Numbered from the stretch's first letter, positions 1,419 to 15,403 are shown. The stretch: DNA of 16,306 bases from a virus (IMGVR_UViG_2563366964_000003), one strand, 5' to 3'. Notes: generated by a model from the letters alone, not told the origin. A program made the numbers and translations.

Positions 1419-2489
1419 TTATTTGATTTCAATTTTGTCCCACTCCCTGCCTCTGTCATCACGATACTGTGATGCCATGGTGTCCGACTTATGCCCGAGA
1501 AGATGTTGAGCAAATTTATCGCTTATCTGCTTCTCATAGAGTCTTGCAGACAAACTGCGCAACTCGTGAAAGGTTGGCGGATCCCCTTCGAAGGAGAGAC
1601 CTGATGCTTTTCGTGCGCGCATAAAATACCTTGATACTGTGCCGGATGAAAGCGGTTCACGACGAGTAGATGCAATTATGGTTTCTCCGCCAAGAATCTT
1701 TTTGCATTTATCAAGTGTTTCCTTCATTGATATCCCGAGAGCATCAACATGCAATGTTGTTGGGATGGCAATTTTTACGCCTGTTTTGCTTTGCTCGACA
1801 TAAAGATATCCATCTACGATATCAGACCACTTCATTTCGCATAAATCACCAACTCGCTGCCCGGTAACAACAGCCAGTTCCATTGCAAGTCTAAGCCAAC
1901 ATGGTGATGATTCTGCTGCTTGATAAATTTTCAGGTATTCGTCAGCCGTAAGTCTTGATCTCCTTACCTCTGATTTTGCAGCGCGAGTGGCTGCGACCGG
2001 GTTTGTTGTTATATGGCCTTCAGCCATAGCCTCTCGGAATGCATCGCTCAGTGTTGATCTGATTAACTTGGCTGATGCCGCCTTTCCCTCGTCTATGTAT
2101 CCATTGAGCATTGCCGCAATTTCTTTTGTGGTGATGTCTTCAAGTGGAGCATCAGGCAGACCCCTCCTTATTGCTTTAATTTTGCTCATGTAATTTATGA
2201 GTGTCTTCTGCTTGATTCCTCTGCTGGCCAGGATTTTTTCGTAGCGATCAAGCCATGAATGTAACGTAACGGAATTATCACTGTTGATTCTCGCTGTCAG
2301 AGGCTTGTGTTTGTGTCCTGAAAATAACTCAATGTTGGCCTGTATAGCTTCAGTGATTGCGATTCGCCTGTCTCGGCCTAATCCAAACTCTTTACCCGTC
2401 CTTGGGTCCCTGTAGCAGTAATATCCATTGTTTCTTATATAAAGGTTAGGGGGTAAATCCCGGCGCTCATGACTTCGCCTTCTTCCCAT
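1419..2489 (-). CDS. int: Phage λ-type integrase (tyrosine recombinase), 356 aa
   Basis: Translation MGRRRSHERRDLPPNLYIRNNGYYCYRDPRTGKEF... matches λ Int from memory essentially throughout; adjacent to attL. Confidence 0.97.
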   Translation of the reverse strand: MGRRRSHERRDLPPNLYIRNNGYYCYRDPRTGKEFGLGRDRRIAITEAIQANIELFSGHKHKPLTARINSDNSVTLHSWLDRYEKILASRGIKQKTLINYMSKIKAIRRGLPDAPLEDITTKEIAAMLNGYIDEGKAASAKLIRSTLSDAFREAMAEGHITTNPVAATRAAKSEVRRSRLTADEYLKIYQAAESSPCWLRLAMELAVVTGQRVGDLCEMKWSDIVDGYLYVEQSKTGVKIAIPTTLHVDALGISMKETLDKCKKILGGETIIASTRREPLSSGTVSRYFMRARKASGLSFEGDPPTFHELRSLSARLYEKQISDKFAQHLLGHKSDTMASQYRDDRGREWDKIEIK

Positions 2490-2685
2490 TTCTGATCCTC
2501 TTCAAAAGGCTACCTGTTACTGGTCGATTTAAGTCAACCTTTACCGCTGATTCGTGGAACAGATATTCTCTTCCATCCTTAACCGGAGGAGGGAATATCC
2601 TGCATTCGCGCACCCATCGACGAACTGTTTCAAGGCTTCTTGGGCGTCGCTGGCGAGCGTTCCACTCCTGAAGTGTCAAGTACAT
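2467..2685 (-). CDS. xis: Excisionase Xis, 72 aa
   Basis: Translation MYLTLQEWNARQRRPRSLETVRRWVRECRIF... matches λ Xis; 23-bp overlap with int as in λ. Confidence 0.95.
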   Translation of the reverse strand: MYLTLQEWNARQRRPRSLETVRRWVRECRIFPPPVKDGREYLFHESAVKVDLNRPVTGSLLKRIRNGKKAKS

Positions 2686-2712
2686 CGCAAAGTCTCCGCA
2701 ATTACACGCAAG

Positions 2713-2733
2713 AAAAAACCGCCATCAGGCGGC
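2713..2733 (-). terminator. Putative intrinsic terminator on the minus strand (GC stem ccgcc/ggcgg, loop, then U6 tract), overlapping the stop of the 55-aa ORF
   Basis: Minus-strand RNA reads gccgccugauggcgg followed by uuuuuucu. Confidence 0.4.
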
Positions 2734-2892
2734 TTGGTGTTCTTTCAGTTCTTCAATTCGAATATTGGTTATGTCTGCATGTGCTATCTGCGCCCATATC
2801 ATCCAGTGGTCATAGCAGTCATTGATGTTCTCTGCTTCGATAACTCTGTTGAATGGTTCTCCATTCCATTCACCTGTGACTCGGAAGTGCAT
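2725..2892 (-). CDS. Small hypothetical protein, 55 aa (MHFRVTGEWNGEPFNRVIEAENINDCYDHWMIWAQIAHADITNIRIEELKEHQAA), in the position of a λ orf55-like gene upstream of xis
   Basis: ATG preceded by GGAG Shine-Dalgarno at about 8 nt; not in the ORF track because under 60 aa; stop codon lies in a terminator-like hairpin. Confidence 0.5.
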   Translation of the reverse strand: MHFRVTGEWNGEPFNRVIEAENINDCYDHWMIWAQIAHADITNIRIEELKEHQAA

Positions 2893-2968
2893 TTATCATC
2901 TCCATAAAACAAAACTCGCCGTAGCGAGTTCAGATATAATTTCCACCAAAGGCAGTAGTTGCTGATGC

Positions 2969-2976
2969 TAAGAATT
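2969..2976. repeat. Left copy of the 8-bp target-site duplication TAAGAATT flanking IS1
   Basis: Identical 8-mer immediately outside both IS1 ends. Confidence 0.75.
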
Positions 2977-3031
2977 GGTGATGCTGCCAACTTACTGATT
3001 TAGTGTATGATGGTGTTTTTGAGGTGCTCCA

Positions 3032-3307
3032 GTGGCTTCTGTTTCTATCAGCTGTCCCTCCTGTTCAGCTACTGACGGGGTGGTGCGTAACGGCAAAAGC
3101 ACTGCCGGACATCAGCGCTATCTCTGCTCTCACTGCCGTAAAACATGGCAACTGCAGTTCACTTACACCGCTTCTCAACCCGGTACGCACCAGAAAATCA
3201 TTGATATGGCCATGAATGGCGTTGGATGCCGGGCAACCGCCCGCATTATGGGCGTTGGCCTCAACACGATTTTCCGCCATTTAAAAAACTCAGGCCGCAG
3301 TCGGTAA
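3032..3307 (+). CDS. insA: IS1 InsA (transposition repressor / N-terminal part of the InsAB' transposase), 91 aa
   Basis: Translation [43 protein letters not shown]... is canonical InsA. Confidence 0.92.
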
Positions 3308-3729
3308 CCTCGCGCATACAGCCGGGCAGTGACGTCATCGTCTGCGCGGAAATGGACGAACAGTGGGGATACGTCGGGGCTAAATCGCGCCAGCGCTGGC
3401 TGTTTTACGCGTATGACAGGCTCCGGAAGACGGTTGTTGCGCACGTATTCGGTGAACGCACTATGGCGACGCTGGGGCGTCTTATGAGCCTGCTGTCACC
3501 CTTTGACGTGGTGATATGGATGACGGATGGCTGGCCGCTGTATGAATCCCGCCTGAAGGGAAAGCTGCACGTAATCAGCAAGCGATATACGCAGCGAATT
3601 GAGCGGCATAACCTGAATCTGAGGCAGCACCTGGCACGGCTGGGACGGAAGTCGCTGTCGTTCTCAAAATCGGTGGAGCTGCATGACAAAGTCATCGGGC
3701 ATTATCTGAACATAAAACACTATCAATAA
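3226..3729 (+). CDS. insB: IS1 insB reading frame (expressed as the InsAB' transposase by -1 frameshift at the A6C motif, about 3285-3291)
   Basis: Translation ...[50 protein letters not shown]... is canonical InsB; slippery aaaaaac present in the insA/insB overlap. Confidence 0.88.
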
Positions 3730-3744
3730 GTTGGAGTCATTACC

Positions 3745-3752
3745 TAAGAATT
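3745..3752. repeat. Right copy of the 8-bp target-site duplication TAAGAATT flanking IS1
   Basis: Identical to 2969-2976; overlaps the stop codon of the 142-aa gene. Confidence 0.75.
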
Positions 3753-4179
3753 ATTCAATATCTATTCCTGTAATATCTTTTATCTTTTTCCTTGCAAAGC
3801 CTTTTGCTAGTGATTTTGAAACACTTATTAGTGTACTAATTCCCTCATCCTTAAAGTTTGTTTTTATAGTTTGCCAGACCTCCTTTTGACGCAAGTCAGC
3901 AATAAAATCATGCCCTCTTGCTGTCAACCTCAGTGGTACTTCGATCCAACTATATCCAACACCTTCCCCTAACTCGTTGGACATTATATGACCGAACCCA
4001 GGTTTTCCATCAACCCTGACTATTAATTCGTAGTCGCATAATAATCGCATATGGAAAATAAAATTTTGGTCATATCTATTAAAGCCATTATCCTCTAGTT
4101 CACTAAGCATCGTGTCAGGGCCATGAGTTTTTTCGAATGCGATAAGTAGATCTTTTAGATATTGCTGGTCTAATTTCAT
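3751..4179 (-). CDS. Hypothetical prophage accessory protein, 142 aa, no family recognised with certainty (possibly a DUF2513-like winged-helix phage protein)
   Basis: Clean ORF with strong GGAGG Shine-Dalgarno 6-7 nt upstream of ATG; lies in an AT-rich accessory segment of the leftward operon. Confidence 0.65.
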   Translation of the reverse strand: MKLDQQYLKDLLIAFEKTHGPDTMLSELEDNGFNRYDQNFIFHMRLLCDYELIVRVDGKPGFGHIMSNELGEGVGYSWIEVPLRLTARGHDFIADLRQKEVWQTIKTNFKDEGISTLISVSKSLAKGFARKKIKDITGIDIE

Positions 4180-4207
4180 TGCCGCCTCCGTGACATGTCA
4201 CAGAGAT

Positions 4208-4546
4208 TTATATCATTAATTTTGTTTCGTGCCAGCCTTTGGTCACCCAGCATTGTGAGTCACCATTACACGGGCATGAATTAACAGGAACTCTCTCGCC
4301 GCACTTACCGCAACGTTTTCTGCTGATCGATTTTATACGCCAGCGCACACGTGCATCATCCTGGCGGCTCAGTAACGCGATGTACTCACCAAACTCGTAA
4401 GGCGCATGCCTGAAGCGGCGCGTGGCTCAGTTACGATCCAGCATTTCAATTTCCTGAGCATCAAGTACAAGCTCCAGCTTACGCATACCGGATGATGCTT
4501 GCTTGGCTCTCTGATCGACTTTGCGCTCTGCTGATGATTTAGCCAT
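4208..4546 (-). pseudogene. Opal-interrupted small ORF: 39 codons (MAKSSAERKVDQRAKQASSGMRKLELVLDAQEIEMLDRN), in-frame TGA at 4427-4429, then 72 further in-frame codons ending in a CxxC...CxC zinc-ribbon-like tail; possibly ea8.5-like
   Basis: AGGAAA Shine-Dalgarno before the ATG; open reading continues in the same frame after the TGA to TAA at 4208-4210. Confidence 0.45.
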
Positions 4547-4740
4547 TCTGCTTTTCCTGCATTAGGAGAAAGACAATCATGGCGGCGCGGATACTTCCGG
4601 TATCTTTTTACTCGATATTACCCTTCAATGGCACATACAAGAAGAGAGCCATCAACAGGAGTGAGTGAGGAATCGACAACCAGCAACGCTTAATTATCTA
4701 TAGTGTCGTATTTGCTTCATAAAATATGGCGAATAACACA

Positions 4741-4778
4741 AAGCCCGCAGCAGCTCATTGTGCGGGCTTTTCTTATAC
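4741..4778. terminator. Intrinsic terminator hairpin (aagcccgca ... tgcgggctt) with T-rich tails on both strands; likely terminates the 4840-5454 gene
   Basis: 9-bp perfect stem followed by ttttcttat on plus and by a U-rich run on minus; about 65 nt downstream of the minus-strand stop at 4840. Confidence 0.5.
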
Positions 4779-4839
4779 ATACTTCCTAGAGATAATTCTA
4801 TGGAGGCATTAAATTAATACTGTCATTGGTAATATCATA

Positions 4840-5454
4840 TTATCTAAAAGTCTTTCCACTTTTAACGTCTAGGTATATTCTGTTCGACAACGTCATTCCT
4901 CCGCAATATGTGAAATAGATGTTTTTCCCCTTATTGCTTGATGCCATCCACCCTCCGATTTCCTTAAAGTCGCTTTCCGTGCAGACCCCTTCGTTTATTA
5001 ACTTCCTAGCTGCCGAAGAAAACTCTTTTTTGTATATACGGTAGTCATCAGATCCTTTGATTAAAGTATCATCTCCGCTCGCATTTTCAGCAGGATCTGA
5101 TGGCCTTTCACTGCTAAGATCACTAAGTTTAACCCATTCTGAAAACTTGCCATTGACGATTCCGTTTTTTCTTGTGCAGGATTTATTACCTTCTTTAATA
5201 TATTCGCTTTCCCCTCCCACACATGAGGCTGAATATGGCTCAGTTATACGAACCCATTCACCTTTTTTTTCTAGAAAATCTACGCCTTCCCTGAAAAATA
5301 GTTTCCCAGCCACTCCACATTTACTTGAAGGGCAGGTATGTCTTTCCGTTCGATCAACAACAACCCAAAGTCTTGATTCATTTTTTGCCATTGCCGATGG
5401 TATTTGAGATGAGACAATTAACGTAAGCCCTAAAATTAGTATTGATTTTTTCAT
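4840..5454 (-). CDS. Secreted or periplasmic hypothetical protein, 204 aa, with signal peptide (MKKSILILGLTLIVSSQIPSAMA) and six cysteines
   Basis: Sec-type signal peptide with AMA-K cleavage motif; AAGGAA Shine-Dalgarno; own terminator; AT-rich codon usage unlike flanking λ genes. Confidence 0.7.
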   Translation of the reverse strand: MKKSILILGLTLIVSSQIPSAMAKNESRLWVVVDRTERHTCPSSKCGVAGKLFFREGVDFLEKKGEWVRITEPYSASCVGGESEYIKEGNKSCTRKNGIVNGKFSEWVKLSDLSSERPSDPAENASGDDTLIKGSDDYRIYKKEFSSAARKLINEGVCTESDFKEIGGWMASSNKGKNIYFTYCGGMTLSNRIYLDVKSGKTFR

Positions 5455-5752
5455 TGTAATTTCCTTTTACTTTTTACAAAGCGTTTAATCATGGCTGATT
5501 ATCTTTAAGCGTAGTAACAGCCTTGTGCGAAACATGTTACCAAATCGCCATTTCAGTGTATCCGCAGTTAGGCTGCCACTTCAAGGATTCCTAATTACAT
5601 GGTACGTAAGCGTAAAATCCCGTTGGTTGTCGGGTAATAACTCTGATCAAATCTCCCTTGTCTTTTGCTCTTACGTATGCAGCTCTTGTGTATTCAACCC
5701 AGGCCTCCAGTTCAGCAATACGCTTACTTCCATCCGAGATAACACCTTCTAC

Positions 5753-6004
5753 TCACGCTGCTCGTTGAGTTTTGATTTTTGCTGTCTCCAGCTCAACACG
5801 CAGTTTCCTCACCGTTAGCGCAATATCCTCGTTCTCCTGGTCGCGGCGTTTGATGTACTGCTGGTTTCTTTCCCGTTCATCCAGCAGTGTCAGCACAATC
5901 GATGGTGTTACCAGCTCATGGAAAAGGTCCGCGTCAAATCCCCAGTTGTCATGCATTGCCTGCTCTGCCGCTTCACGCAGTGCCTGAGAGTGAATTACGC
6001 TCAC
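5753..6004 (-). CDS. Hypothetical early-left protein, 83 aa as written, in the position of λ ea22; frame stays open for 50 more codons after the TGA stop (to 5592), so this may be an opal-truncated longer gene
   Basis: GTG start overlapping the upstream stop (GTGA coupling); coiled-coil-like C-terminus; in-frame continuation read by hand. Confidence 0.55.
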   Translation of the reverse strand: MSVIHSQALREAAEQAMHDNWGFDADLFHELVTPSIVLTLLDERERNQQYIKRRDQENEDIALTVRKLRVELETAKIKTQRAA

Positions 6005-6222
6005 TTCGAACCTCTCTGTTTACTGATAAGTTCCAGATCCTCCTGGCAACTTGCACAAGTCCGACAACCCTGAACGGCCAGGCGTCTTCGTTCATCTATC
6101 GGATCGCCACACTCACAACAATGAGTGGCAGATATAGCCTGGTGGTTCAGGCGGCGCATTTTTATTGCTGTGTTGCGCTGTAATTCTTCAATTTCTGATG
6201 CTGAATCAATGATGTCTGCCAT
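6001..6222 (-). CDS. DksA/TraR-family C4 zinc-finger protein, 73 aa (λ Orf73-like)
   Basis: CxxC ... CxxC spacing (CCECGDPI ... CRTCASC) and size typical of TraR; location in the leftward early operon. Confidence 0.8.
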   Translation of the reverse strand: MADIIDSASEIEELQRNTAIKMRRLNHQAISATHCCECGDPIDERRRLAVQGCRTCASCQEDLELISKQRGSK

Positions 6223-6320
6223 CTTTCATTAATCCCTGAATTGTTGGTTAATACGCTTGAGGGTGAATGCGAATAATAAAAAAGGAGCCTGTAGCTCCCT
6301 GATGATTTTGCTTTTCATGT

Positions 6321-6602
6321 TCACCGTTCCTTAAAAACGCCGTTTAACATGCCGATTGCTAGACTTAAATGAGTCGGTGTGAATCCCATCAGCGTTACCG
6401 TTTCGCGGTGCTTCTTCAGTACGCTACGGCAAATGTCATCGACGTTTTTATCCGGAAACTGCTGTCTGGCTTTTTTGATTTCAGAATTAGCCTGACGGGC
6501 AATGCTGCGAAGGGCGTTTTCCTGCTGAGGTGTCACTGAACAAGCCCCATGTCGGCAAGCATAAGCACACAGAATATGAAGCCCGCTGCCAGAAAAATGC
6601 AT
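6321..6602 (-). CDS. Hypothetical small early-left protein (93 aa from the first ATG; true start may be internal)
   Basis: ORF in the same orientation and operon as exo and the TraR-like gene; no recognisable domain; weak Shine-Dalgarno at the first ATG. Confidence 0.4.
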   Translation of the reverse strand: MHFSGSGLHILCAYACRHGACSVTPQQENALRSIARQANSEIKKARQQFPDKNVDDICRSVLKKHRETVTLMGFTPTHLSLAIGMLNGVFKER

Positions 6603-6804: not shown

Positions 6805-6965
6805 ACAGCCCCTCGTTTATTATTTATCTCCTCAGCCAGCCGCTGTGCTTTCAGTGGATTTCGGATAACAGAAAGGCCGGGAAATACCCAGCCTCGCTTT
6901 GTAACGGAGTAGACGAAAGTGATTGCGCCTACCCGGATATTATCGTGAGGATGCGTCATCGCCAT
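6777..6965 (-). CDS. Small early-left protein, 62 aa (position of λ orf60a), start overlapping the exo stop
   Basis: ORF directly following exo in the same orientation; short overlaps typical of the λ operon. Confidence 0.45.
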
Positions 6966-7636
6966 TGCTCCCCAAATACAAAACCAATTTCAGCCAGTGC
7001 CTCGTCCATTTTTTCGATGAACACCGGCACCATCTCGTCAAAACTCGCCATGTACTTTTCATCCCGCTCAACCACGACATAATGCAGTCCTTCACGCTTC
7101 ATACGCGGGTCATAGTTGGCAAAGTACCAGGCATCTTTTCGTGTCACCCACATGCTGTACTGCACCTGGGCCATGTAAGCCGACTTTATGGCCTCGAAAC
7201 CACCGAGCCGGAACTTCATGAAATCCCGGGAGGTAAACGGGCATTTCAGCTCAAGGCCATTGCCGTCACTGCATAAACCATCGGGAGAGCAGGCGGTGCG
7301 CATACTTTCGTCGCGATAGATGATCGGGGATTCAGTAACATTCACGCCGGAAGTGAATTCAAACAGGGTTCTGGCGTCGTTCTCGTACTGTTTTCCCCAT
7401 GCCAGCGCCTTAGCATTAACTTCCGGAGCCACACCGGTGCAAACCTCAGCCAGCAGGGTGTGGAAGTAGGACATTTTCATGTCAGGCCACTTCTTTCCTG
7501 AGCGGGGCTTGGCTATCACGTTGTGAACTTCTGAAGCGGTGATGACGCCGAGCCGTAATTTGTGCCATGCATCATCCCCCTGTTCGACAGCTCTCACGTC
7601 GATCCCGGTACGCTGCAGGATAATGTCCGGTGTCAT
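6956..7636 (-). CDS. exo: λ exonuclease (Redα), 226 aa, intact
   Basis: Translation [50 protein letters not shown]... matches λ Exo over its full length. Confidence 0.97.
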
Positions 7637-8079
7637 GCTGCCACCTTCTGCTCAGTGGCTTTCTGTTTCAGGAATCCAAGAGCTTTCACTGCTTCGGCCT
7701 GTGTCAGTTCTGACGATGCGCGAATGTCGCGGCGAAATATCTGGGAACAGAGCGGCAATAAGTCGTCATCCCATGTTTTGTCCAGGGCAATCAGCAGAGT
7801 GTTAATCTCCTGCATGGTTTCATCGTTAACCGGAGTAATGTCGCGTTCCGGCTGACGTTCTGCGGTGTATGCGGTATTTTCGACAATGCGCTCGGCTTCA
7901 TCCTTGTCATAGATACCAGCAAATCCGAAGGCCAGACGGGCACACTGAATCATGGCTTTATGCCGTAACATCCGTTTGGGATGCGACTGCCACGGCCCCG
8001 TAATTTCTCTGCCTTCGCGGGTTTTGAATGGTTCGCGGCGGCATTCATCCATCCACTCGGTAACGCAGATCGGATGATT
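7633..8079 (-). pseudogene. bet: bet (Redβ) 3' fragment: C-terminal part only (...NHPICVTEWMDECRREPFKTREGREITGPW...KVAA); N-terminal third missing
   Basis: C-terminal translation matches λ Bet; upstream of codon N (8079-8077) the frame hits TAG and homology to Bet is lost. Confidence 0.9.
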
Positions 8080-8201
8080 ACCGGTTCGCTACCAGGGAAG
8101 AACGGGAAGGAAAGGTGAGCACGAATCTGATTTTCAAGGAGTGTCGCCAGAGTGCCGCGATGAAGCGGGTGTTGGCATTTTATCGCGGCAATTTTCAATA
8201 G
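8079..8201 (+). pseudogene. ren: ren 3' remnant (encodes ...YRFATREEREGKVSTNLIFKECRQSAAMKRVLAFYRGNFQ), fused directly to the bet truncation point
   Basis: Plus-strand frame matches my recollection of the λ Ren C-terminus (YRFATREEREGKMSTNLVFKECRQSAAMKRVLA...); recall-based. Confidence 0.6.
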
Positions 8202-8238
8202 ACTATGTACATAAAAATATCATTTTTTTAATACATGT

Positions 8239-8430
8239 CTAATTATTGGACGAAATTGGTTTTTGCTTTGGTTTAGTTAGCCTAGCAATCAAGCCAGAGG
8301 CAATAATGATGATCCAAGCAATTTGATGCAATGCTACTCCAATATAAGAACCTTTATAGATAATAAAGGCATAGATCGCTAGAAACGAAATAAATATCCA
8401 TAACGAAAGTTGATAAATTTTGGCGCGCAT
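8239..8430 (-). CDS. Possible small membrane protein (63 aa from ATG; two hydrophobic segments)
   Basis: ORF in AT-rich cargo DNA, divergent from the lipoprotein operon; weak Shine-Dalgarno; could be a chance ORF in AT-rich sequence. Confidence 0.3.
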   Translation of the reverse strand: MRAKIYQLSLWIFISFLAIYAFIIYKGSYIGVALHQIAWIIIIASGLIARLTKPKQKPISSNN

Positions 8431-8686
8431 ATTTAATCCAATCAATCAGAAAGACGAGTAATCATAGAGGTACTATCACCCGGGTAACTATTGCTATTAT
8501 GAACGGATAGGATAGAGGCTTCAATAACATATGCATCAAGTATGATGGAATATGTAGGTGAAAATGACTTGTGTCAAATTTGTGGAAATGAGTACCATGT
8601 TTCTCTGAAATTGATGTCGTTAATGGCTAGTGATAGTGAACTTTTTTACTTTATAATTCCTTTGGTTATAACAATAAGGTAAATTT

Positions 8687-9247
8687 ATGAAGAAGATAAT
8701 ATTATTAGCCATGATTATTGGTTCTTTAACAGGTTGCGCTAGTGTGCCACCATTGAATTTTTCAACACCTAACGTGGGAGTTAGCCAGAAAAAAATAGAT
8801 GCTGAAATTAAGTCATTAACGGTATCACTTGCTCGTCCAGATGAGCAGAAAGGGGATATCACTGCTGGTATGGAGGCTATAACTCCAATTTGGCGTGAAT
8901 CTTTGCAGGAAGCACTCGACCGAATGACTATTTTTCGTGATAGTTCACCAAATACGGTTAGCTTAAATGTTAAAGTGTTGGCTCTTGACGTTCCTGCTTT
9001 TGGTGTTTCAATGACAACTAAAGCAATTGCAAGGTATGAAATAATCAACCGTGCGAATGGTGATATTATATATACGCAGGATATTGAGTCTACCGGTACT
9101 GTTCCAGCCAGTTACGCATTCTACGGTATTGTTCGAGCACGCGAATCTGTTAATCGCGCGGTGCAAAACAACATAACGCAGTTCTTGCAAGCATTAGAAA
9201 GTGTTGATCTTTCTCGTCCAATGTTTCCTGTTAGGGTAGCTAAATGA
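8687..9247 (+). CDS. Lipoprotein of unknown family, 186 aa (signal peptide plus lipobox LTGC)
   Basis: MKKIILLAMIIGSLTGC lipobox; AAGG Shine-Dalgarno; stop overlaps the start of the next gene (ATGA). Confidence 0.75.
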   Translation: MKKIILLAMIIGSLTGCASVPPLNFSTPNVGVSQKKIDAEIKSLTVSLARPDEQKGDITAGMEAITPIWRESLQEALDRMTIFRDSSPNTVSLNVKVLALDVPAFGVSMTTKAIARYEIINRANGDIIYTQDIESTGTVPASYAFYGIVRARESVNRAVQNNITQFLQALESVDLSRPMFPVRVAK

Positions 9248-9696
9248 AGCGATTATTCGTAATTGCTCCACTCTTAGTGTTGGTTGGATGCGCACAAAAT
9301 ATATCGCCAAATAGTTATTCTGTTGGCTCTGTGGGCATGGTTAATCGAACTATCGCTGGTACAGTTATTAGTGCTAGGGGGGTTGATATCAGTGGGACTT
9401 CCGCGTTAGGCGGGACTGCTGGGGCTGCCGTGGGGGCAACCGCTGGTTCTGCGCTTGGTGGGGGAGTTCGTTCTAATATCGTTGGTGCCGTTGGTGGTGC
9501 AGTCATTGGTGGTATTGCCGGGGCAGCAATCGAATCTTCAGCAACAAAACAAACAGGCATGGAATATGTTGTCGAAACTGAGAATGGGAATTTAATGACC
9601 ATTGTTCAAGGCAAAGATCCGTTATTTACTCAAGGAAGTAAGGTCCTTGTTTTATACGGAAACCCTTCTCGCATAATAACAGACCCGCGTCACTAA
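9244..9696 (+). CDS. SlyB/Pcp-like glycine-zipper outer-membrane lipoprotein, 150 aa (lipobox LVGC)
   Basis: Lipobox; glycine-zipper stretch (IVGAVGGAVIGGIAGAAI); C-terminal KQTGMEYVVETENGNLMTIVQGK resembles the SlyB C-terminal region (KTQGVELEIRKDDGNTIMVVQKQ) as I recall it. Confidence 0.8.
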   Translation: MKRLFVIAPLLVLVGCAQNISPNSYSVGSVGMVNRTIAGTVISARGVDISGTSALGGTAGAAVGATAGSALGGGVRSNIVGAVGGAVIGGIAGAAIESSATKQTGMEYVVETENGNLMTIVQGKDPLFTQGSKVLVLYGNPSRIITDPRH

Positions 9697-9788
9697 CATA
9701 CCTTTTGATTTTGTAAAATCAATTCGTAATAATAAAGTCATCGGAGCTTGAACAACTCCGGTGACTTCTGCGCTAAACGGGGACGTTT

Positions 9789-9890
9789 ATGCGCACATAC
9801 AATCCAAACTCTCTTCTCCCTTCACAGATGCAGAAATGCACCTGCGATTTTTTGCATCCAGCGTCTGACCTCTGCGGAGGTGAAGCGTGA
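9789..9890 (+). CDS. ylcH: Small DLP12-type protein YlcH-like, 33 aa ([33 protein letters not shown])
   Basis: Short ORF whose stop overlaps the ybcN GTG start; resembles remembered YlcH. Confidence 0.55.
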
Positions 9891-11947: not shown

Positions 11948-13030
11948 TTAGAACTGGTAAACCATACCTACAGCAACGATATCATCGGTAGCAACGCCAG
12001 ATGCTTTCGTGAAATCGCTCTTATCAATCAGGTTGATTTTGTAATCAACAAAAGTGGACATATTTTTGTTGAAGTAATAGGTTGCACCTACATCAATATA
12101 TTCAACCAGGTCCTGATCACCCCACGCACCCAAGTCTTTTCCTTTAGATTGCAGGTAAGCAACGGACGGACGCAGACCGAAGTCGAACTGATATTGTGCA
12201 ACTACTTCGAAGTTTTGTGCTTTGTTGGCAATATGGTTATTACCAAAAACAGTCATGTTCTGGGTTTCAGAATAGGTGGTAGCCAGATAGATGTTGTTCG
12301 CATCATATTTCAGACCAGCTGCCCATACTTCAGCATTTTGACCAGATGCATTCAGGCTGTTGTTACCGTAGATAACCTGATTATTAGTGCGGTCAGATTT
12401 AGCATAGGTTGCACCTACACCGAATCCTTCATACTCATAAGTAGTGGAGAAACCGAAACCATCACCATTAGCTTCAGTTACGTCAGTGCGGTCATTTTTA
12501 CCCTGATACTGAGCAGCAAAGTTCAGACCATCAACCAGACCAAAGAAGTCATTGTTACGATAAGTTGCAACACCTGTGGTGCGACCAGTCATGAATACAT
12601 CTGTTTGGGTCCAGGTATCGCCACCGAATTCTGGCAGAACGTCGGTCCATGCACCAATATCGTATGCTACACCGTAGTTACGGCCATAATCGATGGAGCC
12701 GTAGTCACCGAATTTCAGGCCAGCGAAGGCAAGACGGGTTTTATCTTTGGAGGAACCTTGAGATTCAGCGCGGTTGCCTTTGAATTCATATTCCCACTGA
12801 CCGAAACCAGTCAGTTGATCGTTGATTTGGGTTTCACCTTTGAAGCCAAGACGGGCATAAGTAGTATCACCATCATCTGCATCATTAGAGGAGAAGTAGT
12901 GCTTAGCATTAACTTTCCCGTACAGATCCAGCTTGTTACTGTCTTTATTATAAATTTCAGCTGCCTGAGCAGACATCGCCATCAGTACTGATGCAGCTAC
13001 AGCAGAAATTGCCACTGTTAATTTTTTCAT
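11948..13030 (-). CDS. nmpC: OmpC/OmpF-family general porin (NmpC/OmpD-like), about 360 aa with signal peptide; apparently intact
   Basis: Signal peptide [23 protein letters not shown]; porin motifs; C-terminal ...VAVGMVYQF; AAGGG Shine-Dalgarno. The tracked ORF starts 20 codons upstream but MKKL is the plausible start. Confidence 0.9.
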
Positions 13031-13456
13031 CGTGAGCCCTTTTTTTGAACTATTATTAAAAAATGATGTCACTGCGCGATAAATATTCATCTAATCAATG
13101 TGATTATTTCAAGATGTAAGTTTTGCTTTCTCATTTGATTTGTGAAGTAGATCTCTATTTTTATCTGAACTTTTTCTATCGAATCCTATTCATGGCTCTT
13201 GGCTGAATAAAAATAAATCTATTAGCCAATTTATATTAATGGCTGTTATTTATAAGTGCTCTATAATTTGAAGATTCAATTTAAACCAGCTAAAAATAAC
13301 GCTGGAAATTATTTGTTGGTTATTTGTTGAGATTTGCTTATGTATTTGTAGTGGTGTTTTCAATACTCGGTAGCATTCTCGCAAATATCATTTAGTGGTT
13401 TACGTACGTAAAAAATTGGTTATGCTGTTAAGAGTGGTTACTTCGTCACACAGCTT

Positions 13457-14819: not shown

Positions 14820-15113
14820 TTATTGTGAGCAATACACACGCGCTTCCAGCGGAGTATAAATGCCTAAAGTAATAAAACCGAGCAATCCATTTACGAATGT
14901 TTGCTGGGTTTCTGTTTTAACAACATTTTCTGCGCCGCCACAAATTTTGGCTGCATCGACAGTTTTCTTCTGCCCAATTCCAGAAACGAAGAAATGATGG
15001 GTGATGGTTTCCTTTGGTGCTACTGCTGCCGGTTTGTTTTGAACAGTAAACGTCTGTTGAGCACATCCTGTAATAAGCAGGGCCAGCGCAGTAGCGAGTA
15101 GCATTTTTTTCAT
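14820..15113 (-). CDS. borD: Bor lipoprotein (serum-resistance-associated outer-membrane lipoprotein), 97 aa
   Basis: MKKMLLATALALLITGCAQQTFTVQNKPAAVAPKETITHHFFVSGIGQKKTVD... matches Bor. Confidence 0.93.
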   Translation of the reverse strand: MKKMLLATALALLITGCAQQTFTVQNKPAAVAPKETITHHFFVSGIGQKKTVDAAKICGGAENVVKTETQQTFVNGLLGFITLGIYTPLEARVYCSQ

Positions 15114-15403
15114 GGTGTTATTCCCGATGCTTTTTGAAGTTCGCAGAATCGTATGTGTAGAAAATTAAACAAACCCTAAACAATGAGTTGAAATTTCATA
15201 TTGTTAATATTTATTAATGTATGTCAGGTGCGATGAATCGTCATTGTATTCCCGGATTAACTATGTCCACAGCCCTGACGGGGAACTTCTCTGCGGGAGT
15301 GTCCGGGAATAATTAAAAACGATGCACACAGGGTTTAGCGCGTACACGTATTGCATTATGCCAACGCCCCGGTGCTGACACGGAAGAAACCGGACGTTAT
15401 GAT

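Follow-up and report, generated by a model that had tools for sequence, protein, structure and literature searches.

A putatively mobile gene pair combining a SlyB paralog with a lipoprotein of predicted LptE/PelC/PqiC-like fold in a lambdoid prophage

Analysis of the window, i.e. the whole 16,306-nucleotide stretch of DNA studied here, identified two adjacent lipoprotein genes on the plus strand that form a conserved pair. The first of these, gene A (8687..9247), encodes a 186-aa lipoprotein of an unnamed family, and the second, gene B (9244..9696), a 150-aa lipoprotein that is a paralog of SlyB. The pairing pattern holds across phyla, and the gene order and divergence of the copies suggest that the two genes make up a self-contained, horizontally mobile cassette. 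The pair thus consists of a SlyB paralog and a putatively co-translated partner with a predicted LptE/PelC/PqiC-like fold, at about 60% identity across phyla. The new element is the obligate A–B pairing, B being a newly added member of the SlyB family.

Pairing of A and B in genomes and viral contigs

A degenerate-pattern scan for A, covering one genome per species in 185,579 species, found 62 loci. These were distributed among Gamma-, Beta- and Alphaproteobacteria, together with a few Chthoniobacteraceae and Solibacter, and their products were 46–84% identical to A. In 57 of the 62 species loci, tblastn placed a homologue of B directly downstream of A, a count that overstates the number of independent events because many of the loci come from related Stenotrophomonas and other Xanthomonadaceae (Xanthomonadales). 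The five loci without B were found in two Photorhabdus, in Budvicia, in Massilia horti and, as a decaying copy, in Brachymonas.

In the window, the stop codon of A (TGA, 9245–9247) and the start codon of B (ATG, 9244–9246) share the overlap ATGA (9244..9247, plus strand), an arrangement indicating translational coupling. The start of B could be assigned in 52 of the loci, and the distance from the stop of A to this start was −4 nt in 39 of them, the overlap then being ATGA, GTGA or TTGA. In the remaining loci the distance was −1 nt (three loci), +1 to +4 nt (nine loci) or +26 nt (one locus), so that 51 of the 52 resolved loci lay within −4 to +4 nt. The pairwise identity matrices of the mature A and mature B proteins, constructed from 57 pairs, were strongly correlated (r = 0.92; Mantel test, 0/2000 permutations), with mean pairwise identities of 63% for mature A and 60% for mature B. 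Judged from this comparison of genomes, A and B apparently form one unit of inheritance, transfer and translation.

No third conserved gene was detected in the all-against-all clustering of the ORFs of the 62 loci, the only other large clusters being shadow ORFs antisense to A or B. Neither was any recurrent neighbour family found with Pfam and PADLOC among the 145 proteins encoded beside the pair in 38 non-redundant loci. These proteins represented 100 different Pfam families, none of which occurred more than four times, and the commonest were S24 peptidases/repressors, HTH proteins, SRAP, integrases, antitoxins and single defence genes. The surroundings of the pair varied from one taxon to another. 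In Bordetella they include toxin–antitoxin (ParE, PIN) and transposase genes, in Luteimonas IS200, NERD and T6SS genes, and in Klebsiella oxytoca umuDC, SRAP and CsbD. The Edaphovirga copy is part of an integrase island, and that of an Alcaligenaceae genome is in a recombinase and HigBA-like region (Gp49/HTH). In a metagenome contig the pair adjoins a putative AbiC gene, and in Stenotrophomonas it lies between a TonB-dependent receptor gene and ispH-lspA-ileS.

Also phages carry the pair, at no fewer than four different sites in their genomes. In IMG/VR, 37 viral contigs contained A, with B next to it in 33. Among the versions that are not of the E. coli type, that of a 35-kb enterobacterial contig (L101) has the tape-measure gene on one side and a minor tail gene on the other. 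In two contigs of high GC content (L104 and L111) the pair is two genes away from a CI-like repressor, and in a fourth contig (L105) it lies downstream of the large terminase gene, separated from it by one small ORF. Independent capture at several positions would be expected for a moron that benefits lysogens, and the pair can be regarded as a candidate lysogenic-conversion module that unrelated temperate phages have captured repeatedly. The module is nevertheless not phage-specific, since most copies are present in chromosomal variable regions; the plasmid search gave only one weak, partial match.

The occurrence of A without B in a few genomes, in three viral contigs and in two of three sampled remote relatives of A (about 30% identity), which have no SlyB-like neighbour, means that A can exist alone. 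The preliminary description of this DNA had read the ATGA overlap in the sequence and had taken the coupling to imply a possible two-component module. The overlap was confirmed and is the prevailing arrangement among the resolved loci, and the module is strongly supported by the comparative genomics, namely by the gene order in bacterial loci and viral contigs and by the correlated divergence of the two proteins.

Identity and predicted structure of the two lipoproteins

Gene A begins with an ATG codon, preceded at a distance of 6–7 nt by a Shine–Dalgarno-like TAAGGT (8675–8680). The first codons (8687..8737, plus strand) encode a signal peptide II and the lipobox LTGC, with the codon of the lipidated Cys17 (TGC) at 8735–8737. 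In the N-terminus, MKKIILLAMIIGSLTGC, a basic n-region and a hydrophobic core precede the lipobox L-T-G-C; the signal peptide, MKKIILLAMIIGSLTG followed directly by the lipobox C, fits the pattern [LVI][ASTVI][GAS]C of Lgt/LspA/Lnt substrates. Cys17 was invariant both in the 31 close homologues and in the 42 distant ones (31/31 and 42/42; alignments A1 and A2), which bears out the 186-aa ORF with an LTGC lipobox given in the preliminary description. In E. coli, the Lol avoidance rule states that a lipoprotein without Asp at position +2 is released to the outer membrane. In A the cysteine is followed by Ala and Ser (C-A-S), so that with Ala and not Asp at +2 the protein would, by the E. coli rule, not be retained in the inner membrane, and an outer-membrane location is predicted.

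Relatives of A (WP_000720581.1) formed 512 clusters in the 90% identity collection (E ≤ 1e-3), and 936 representatives were found in the 50% identity library. A also belongs to PHROG 12521, the function of which is unknown (E 1.7e-124). Because of these many homologues and the PHROG membership, A is no chance ORF. Searches against Pfam, NCBIfam and PADLOC found nothing in A beyond the lipid-attachment motif, and a sequence search of the PDB with the A profile gave no match. This agrees with the earlier reading that A matches no recognised family, and the remote-homology and structure comparisons suggested at that stage gave a predicted LptE/PelC/PqiC-like fold and no named family.

The AlphaFold2 model of A, constructed from an alignment of 31 sequences, had a pLDDT of 83.7 and a pTM of 0.77. 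Its predicted topology is beta-alpha-beta-beta-beta-alpha, and the part following the lipid anchor is a two-layer alpha/beta sandwich with four to five antiparallel strands and two packing helices. The highest-scoring structural neighbour was XCC0632/DUF330 (2iqi; score 13.4), followed by an H. pylori HpaA-type lipoprotein and PelC (both 10.3), a flagellar basal-body ring protein (10.0), LptE (9.8), PqiC (9.4), CsgG (9.1), TraT (7.1) and LpoB (6.0); with sequence identities of 8–15% to these proteins, A is placed among them at the level of the fold only. Nearly all of them are lipoproteins of the outer membrane's inner leaflet, which form rings or dock onto or into beta-barrels. The fold predicted for A is thus typical of ring-forming or barrel-associated outer-membrane lipoproteins, and A appears from the model to represent an uncharacterised family with a known fold. 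A search of the BFVD viral folds with A produced only low-TM, uninformative matches.

The most conserved linear motifs of A are PPLNFSVPNVG, which immediately follows the lipid anchor, and KPMFP, close to the C-terminus. Both are within low-confidence parts of the model, a pattern that would be typical of segments becoming ordered only within a complex.

The second gene of the pair, B (WP_000825400.1; PHROG 13877, function unknown), is a full-length SlyB homologue and an extra, horizontally acquired paralog. Its lipobox is L-V-G-C (MKRLFVIAPLLVLVG followed directly by C), with the codon of Cys16 at 9289–9291. Also here the residue at +2 is Ala (C-A-Q), in line with the Lol avoidance rule and a predicted outer-membrane location. 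With phmmer, residues 2–149 of B aligned with residues 3–155 of the SlyB structures in the PDB (7ojf/7ojg; E 1.3e-14). The AlphaFold2 monomer model of B was of low confidence (pLDDT 64.5). In the Foldseek search of the PDB with this model, the sole significant match was 7ojf_A (E 2.2e-8, probability 1.00), with TM-scores of 0.58/0.62, all 138 of the 138 target residues aligned and an identity of ~27% in the structural alignment. The SlyB-like nature of the downstream gene, which the preliminary description had proposed, was therefore recovered by both the sequence and the structure comparison.

In the model, the order of the elements of B is that of SlyB: a beta strand, a two-helix hairpin (residues 56–70 and 75–100) and further beta strands. 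The predicted glycine-zipper two-helix membrane hairpin comprises approximately residues 54–100 (9403..9543, plus strand). The Pfam models of the Rick_17kDa_Anti/Gly-zipper 2TM type remained below their cut-offs for B itself (residues 55–97, 21.1 bits against a cut-off of 24.2 bits; another model 16.9 against 25), while the precomputed annotation of many B homologues includes PF13488 or PF05433.

A possible complex of A and B and the alternative readings

SlyB forms rings of ~10–13 subunits in which the glycine-zipper hairpins wall off a lipid/protein nanodomain, and its paralog YfgH has been proposed to form rings in the same way (bioRxiv 10.64898/2025.12.22.696046). Such SlyB-type rings, shown only recently, corral lipids and outer-membrane proteins under stress. 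B resembles SlyB (7ojf/7ojg) in its lipobox, its predicted glycine-zipper helical hairpin and the beta strands on either side, but while canonical slyB has no dedicated partner, B is translationally coupled to an apparently dedicated lipoprotein. It is considered moderately probable that A is the dedicated partner of B, in a complex consisting of a ring of B and docked A. In such a complex, the two proteins would be produced in equimolar amounts from one transcript by coupled translation. B would oligomerise into a SlyB-type ring with its glycine-zipper hairpins spanning the outer membrane, and A would dock onto or inside this ring from the periplasmic side, either forming or completing a periplasmic layer, with its PPLNFSVPNVG and KPMFP segments possibly supplying the contacts to B. 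The benefit to the host would likely be a lysogenic conversion of the envelope, which might mean that the outer membrane is stabilised under stress, in the manner of SlyB and YfgH, or that a surface component is occluded, in the manner of TraT, Cor or Llp. The pair would offer a compact and tractable system for ring assembly and function, and for the question of cargo and specificity.

TraT, the surface-exclusion and serum-resistance lipoprotein of the F plasmid (PDB 9e2v/9fs5), is a single polypeptide including a core, two helices and a beta-hairpin, whereas here the elements are split over A and B. The long beta-hairpin of TraT is absent from A, the TraT family model PF05818 matched neither A nor B, and the similarity of the B model to TraT was not significant in Foldseek (E 0.1); the resemblance of the pair to TraT is at the level of the fold only. 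With its LptE-like core and two transmembrane helices, TraT forms a decameric, lipid-plugged ring functioning in surface exclusion (PMC12658005). The composite of A and B would then represent the building blocks of TraT, i.e. an LptE-like core and a two-helix hairpin with a lipid plug, divided between two polypeptides. The more specific form of this idea, a hetero-oligomeric 'split TraT' ring in which a SlyB-type glycine-zipper palisade is capped by a ring of the LptE-fold lipoprotein, and which would be a portable, host-independent device that temperate phages and genomic islands exchange between phyla, for excluding phages or plasmids or for armouring the outer membrane, is suggested tentatively, as possible rather than probable. 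If true, this would make B the first nanodomain protein of the SlyB type to have a dedicated partner that co-evolves with it.

It appears unlikely that the pair is specifically a device of superinfection exclusion, anti-phage defence or anti-conjugation, in which the A/B complex would cover or plug a receptor of the outer membrane or a DNA-entry route like Cor, Llp and TraT. This reading is compatible with the ring of B and docked A, and takes exclusion as the function under selection. Such a role would be consistent with building blocks like those of TraT and with the repeated independent capture by temperate phages at different sites, including sites beside CI-like repressors, the usual place of exclusion genes expressed in lysogeny. 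Some of the chromosomal copies also adjoin genes for AbiC (putative), ParE and PIN, Gp49/HTH, BstA, type IIG restriction–modification or Pycsar-cyclase-like proteins. However, these defence neighbours are single occurrences among the 145 flanking proteins, with no recurring family, and many copies of the pair are situated among ordinary chromosomal genes, such as those around it in Stenotrophomonas. Furthermore, the models of PADLOC-DB v2 matched neither A, B nor the small ORFs of the cassette (E ≤ 0.1). There is little likelihood, too, that A is an auxiliary lipoprotein of lipid or LPS transport, comparable to PqiC/DUF330 with MCE proteins or to LptE with LptD, and that B merely aids its anchoring. 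The predicted fold places A near LptE, PelC, PqiC, DUF330 (XCC0632) and the N-domain of CsgG, but with no membership at the HMM level: among 42 relatives of A searched against Pfam, none belonged to PF03886 or PF04390, the single LptE match having an E-value of 0.018. The partner of A is a SlyB paralog in place of the partners of that group, and no lptD, LptD-like, pelB, pqiAB, csgEF, MCE or ABC-transporter gene was conserved near the pair in the 62 loci. As a mobile two-gene cassette it would also need to work with very different host machineries.

The remaining readings of A derive from its names in the databases, both of which are corrected here as misleading. In most records A is called a 'UDP-N-acetylglucosamine acyltransferase', and the probability that it is one is negligible, this propagated name being all that speaks for it. 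Pfam and NCBIfam detected no hexapeptide-repeat or acyltransferase domain, the predicted beta-alpha-beta-beta-beta-alpha fold is an alpha/beta sandwich and not a left-handed beta-helix, and the structural neighbours are outer-membrane lipoproteins. Recent PGAP annotation, seen in some RefSeq records of WP_000720581.1, uses the name 'YajG family lipoprotein'. YajG (PF03923, Lipoprotein_16; b0434 of E. coli, downstream of ampG) is, like A, a small outer-membrane lipoprotein of ~190 aa with a similar order of secondary-structure elements, and hhalign of the A profile against YajG with signal peptides gave probabilities of 75–91%. The aligned part, however, was limited to the signal peptide and the first strand (columns 1–54), and with both alignments trimmed to the mature proteins, from the lipobox Cys, the value dropped to less than 1%. 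PF03923 was found in none of the 42 members of the A family at E ≤ 1, while YajG itself scored 176.8 bits, and PRK11627 (NF008637) of NCBIfam reached 11.4 bits against a cut-off of 242 bits, within residues 1–62 only. The two also differ in their genomic context and inheritance, A having no ampG context and being sporadic and mobile, whereas YajG is vertically inherited in Enterobacterales. It is thus highly improbable that A is a housekeeping-type paralog of the YajG family with a meaningless place beside B, all the more so as the A–B synteny, the start/stop overlap and the co-divergence rule out chance adjacency. The YajG profile is shallow, its members being at least 85% identical, so a very remote relationship between A and YajG may exist, with membership unsupported. 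A clear match to a well-characterised housekeeping lipoprotein family had been named in the preliminary description as one result that would speak against it, and the tests of YajG gave no such match.

For the partner complex of A and B, another two-gene layout offers a superficial likeness: YfgH is a SlyB-like glycine-zipper lipoprotein with a small envelope gene, YfgI, adjacent to it. YfgI belongs to DUF5384 and is unrelated to A, the gene order is reversed, and the likeness of YfgH to B is weak (BLASTP E 0.009); YfgH/YfgI was consequently rejected as an analogous pair. In the literature, no publication was found on the A–B pair or on a SlyB paralog with a dedicated partner, nor any paper linking YajG-like lipoproteins with SlyB, and a paper on orf6/orf10 of phiv142-3 proved to be unrelated to the pair.

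The prophage locus and its AT-rich cassette

The window is a segment of an E. coli chromosome, identical to that of strain NCTC9040, with a DLP12-like defective lambdoid prophage adjoining ybhC. The prophage is cryptic, as its immunity and replication region is absent. The genes follow each other from left to right in the order exo, bet/recT, ren remnant, AT-rich stretch, ylcH, ninB/ybcN, ninE, ybcO, rusA, ylcG and quuD. To the left of the cassette, exo (6956–7636) is intact and bet/recT (7633–8052) truncated, both on the minus strand.

The pair is situated in an AT-rich accessory cassette, or moron, of no assigned strand (8202..9788), flanked in the lambdoid backbone by the ren remnant and ylcH/ninB. 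In windows of 300 nt, the GC content was 33–41% over positions 8150–9200 and 50–55% in the flanks (a value of ~52% was also obtained for the flanks). In the DLP12 of K-12, the slot from renD to ylcH-ybcN contains emrE-ylcJ-ybcK-ybcL-ybcM in place of the cassette, and because of this other cargo the ren–ninB slot can be regarded as a cargo hot-spot. The whole cassette was present in 280 of the 5426 complete E. coli genomes (about 5%).

Two further ORFs precede the pair within the cassette. The divergent one (8239–8445, minus strand) encodes a small hydrophobic protein of 63–68 aa, whose cluster includes E. coli hypothetical proteins only; it had no family match in Pfam, NCBIfam, PHROGs or PADLOC, and its tblastn matches were confined to loci of E. 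coli and viral contigs of the E. coli type. The other, an ORF of 46 aa (8542–8682), was likewise found only in the E. coli version of the cassette, and for this reason both are outside the conserved module. The AT-rich accessory cassette of the preliminary description accordingly stands with respect to its composition and its place in the ren–ninB slot of a prophage, while the divergent small ORF, which had been counted in it, belongs to the E. coli version alone.

A sigma-70-like promoter candidate (GTGATA, 16-nt spacer, TATAAT; 8630..8657, plus strand) is present 30 nt upstream of A and agrees with the consensus in 10 of 12 positions. As promoter-like sites in the region were no more frequent than in shuffled sequences (6 found, 4.8 expected), the evidence for this promoter is weak. 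Similarly, a terminator-like hairpin with a T-run (9829..9856, plus strand), which lies within the backbone gene ylcH, 133 nt downstream of B, was indistinguishable from chance, the consensus scan having found two terminator-like sites with 1.4 expected. SlyB of E. coli and Salmonella is an outer-membrane lipoprotein regulated by PhoPQ, the PhoP dependence being a trait of the enterobacterial slyB and not of the fold. No PhoP box, (T/G)GTTTA-N5-(T/G)GTTTA with at most two mismatches, was found upstream of A at 8446–8686, which suggests a regulation unlike that of slyB.

A single deposited phage, PhiR30_1, includes the cassette; its host is E. coli C, and its genome of 47 kb is an otherwise complete lambdoid one, with the cassette between ren and ninB. 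Inserted between conserved backbone genes, distinct from them in composition and found in only part of the related phages, the cassette has the character of a phage moron. It resembles the lambdoid morons of the Bor, Cor and Lom type in being an AT-rich, self-contained insert with outer-membrane products that is found in only some related prophages. It differs from Bor and Cor in being a two-protein module, unrelated to them in sequence, with most of its copies outside phages. Bor is also encoded in the same prophage as the A/B cassette.

Limits of the cassette and state of the prophage

The SlyB-like cassette, which carries gene A (the 186-aa lipoprotein gene) and gene B (the SlyB-paralog lipoprotein gene), is followed by a 33-aa ORF (window 9789-9890, plus strand) that overlaps the start of ninB and matches K-12 ylcH and WP_072142085.1. 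This ylcH counterpart belongs to the phage backbone and sets the right-hand boundary of the cassette. On the left side, bet/recT is cut down to 139 aa, with the ren remnant directly adjoining it (window 7633-8201). In comparison to PhiR30_1, a complete lambdoid phage with the same cassette between ren and ninB, the window prophage lacks the gam-kil-cIII-N-cI-cro-cII-O-P block entirely and is therefore cryptic; with this block absent, the cassette cannot rely on transcription from pR.

In related prophages, the position of the window's intact 380-aa ORF (11948-13090, minus strand) is occupied by an nmpC/ompC-like porin gene, which is a pseudogene both in K-12 (disrupted by IS5) and in strain JNQH498 (internal stop).

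The antisense ORF and the PhoP-box-like repeat of bor

Clustering of the ORFs of the 62 A-bearing loci recovered a 142-aa ORF antisense to A (window 8620-9048, minus strand) in 58 of them. This ORF showed no sign of being a real gene; its recurrence merely shadows the strong conservation of the coding sequence of A on the opposite strand.

The bor gene (window 14820-15113, minus strand), whose K-12 counterpart borD is activated by PhoP, is preceded by an exact PhoP-box-like direct repeat, TGTTTAGGGTTTGTTTA (window 15166-15182, minus strand), located 53-69 nt upstream of the start codon. Unlike bor of the same prophage, the cassette has no box of this kind upstream of A (8446-8686) when up to two mismatches are allowed.

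Other genomic contexts of A and B

The viral contig L101 (IMG/VR 3300045988_121267, enterobacterial; region 1665-6394) includes the A-B cassette as an insertion flanked by the tail tape-measure gene and a lambda-M-like minor tail gene, and this site within a tail operon is an unusual place for a moron.

The Photorhabdus loci L048 and L052 include A alone, without B, and directly downstream (ca. 5270-6050 and 4960-5320, respectively) the translations contain the periodic repeats VHCRTGSLE / FLSCLYGSE. The pattern appears typical of a CRISPR array translated through in frame, and the putative CRISPR repeat presumably resembles a type I-F-like repeat.

In the Stenotrophomonas maltophilia group, the A-B pair (region 7001-9815 of L073, from Stenotrophomonas sp. 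MYb238) is flanked by a FecIR/TonB-dependent receptor cluster and by ispH-lspA-ileS-ribF-murJ. The lipoprotein signal peptidase gene is thus only two genes away, a closeness that is probably coincidental.
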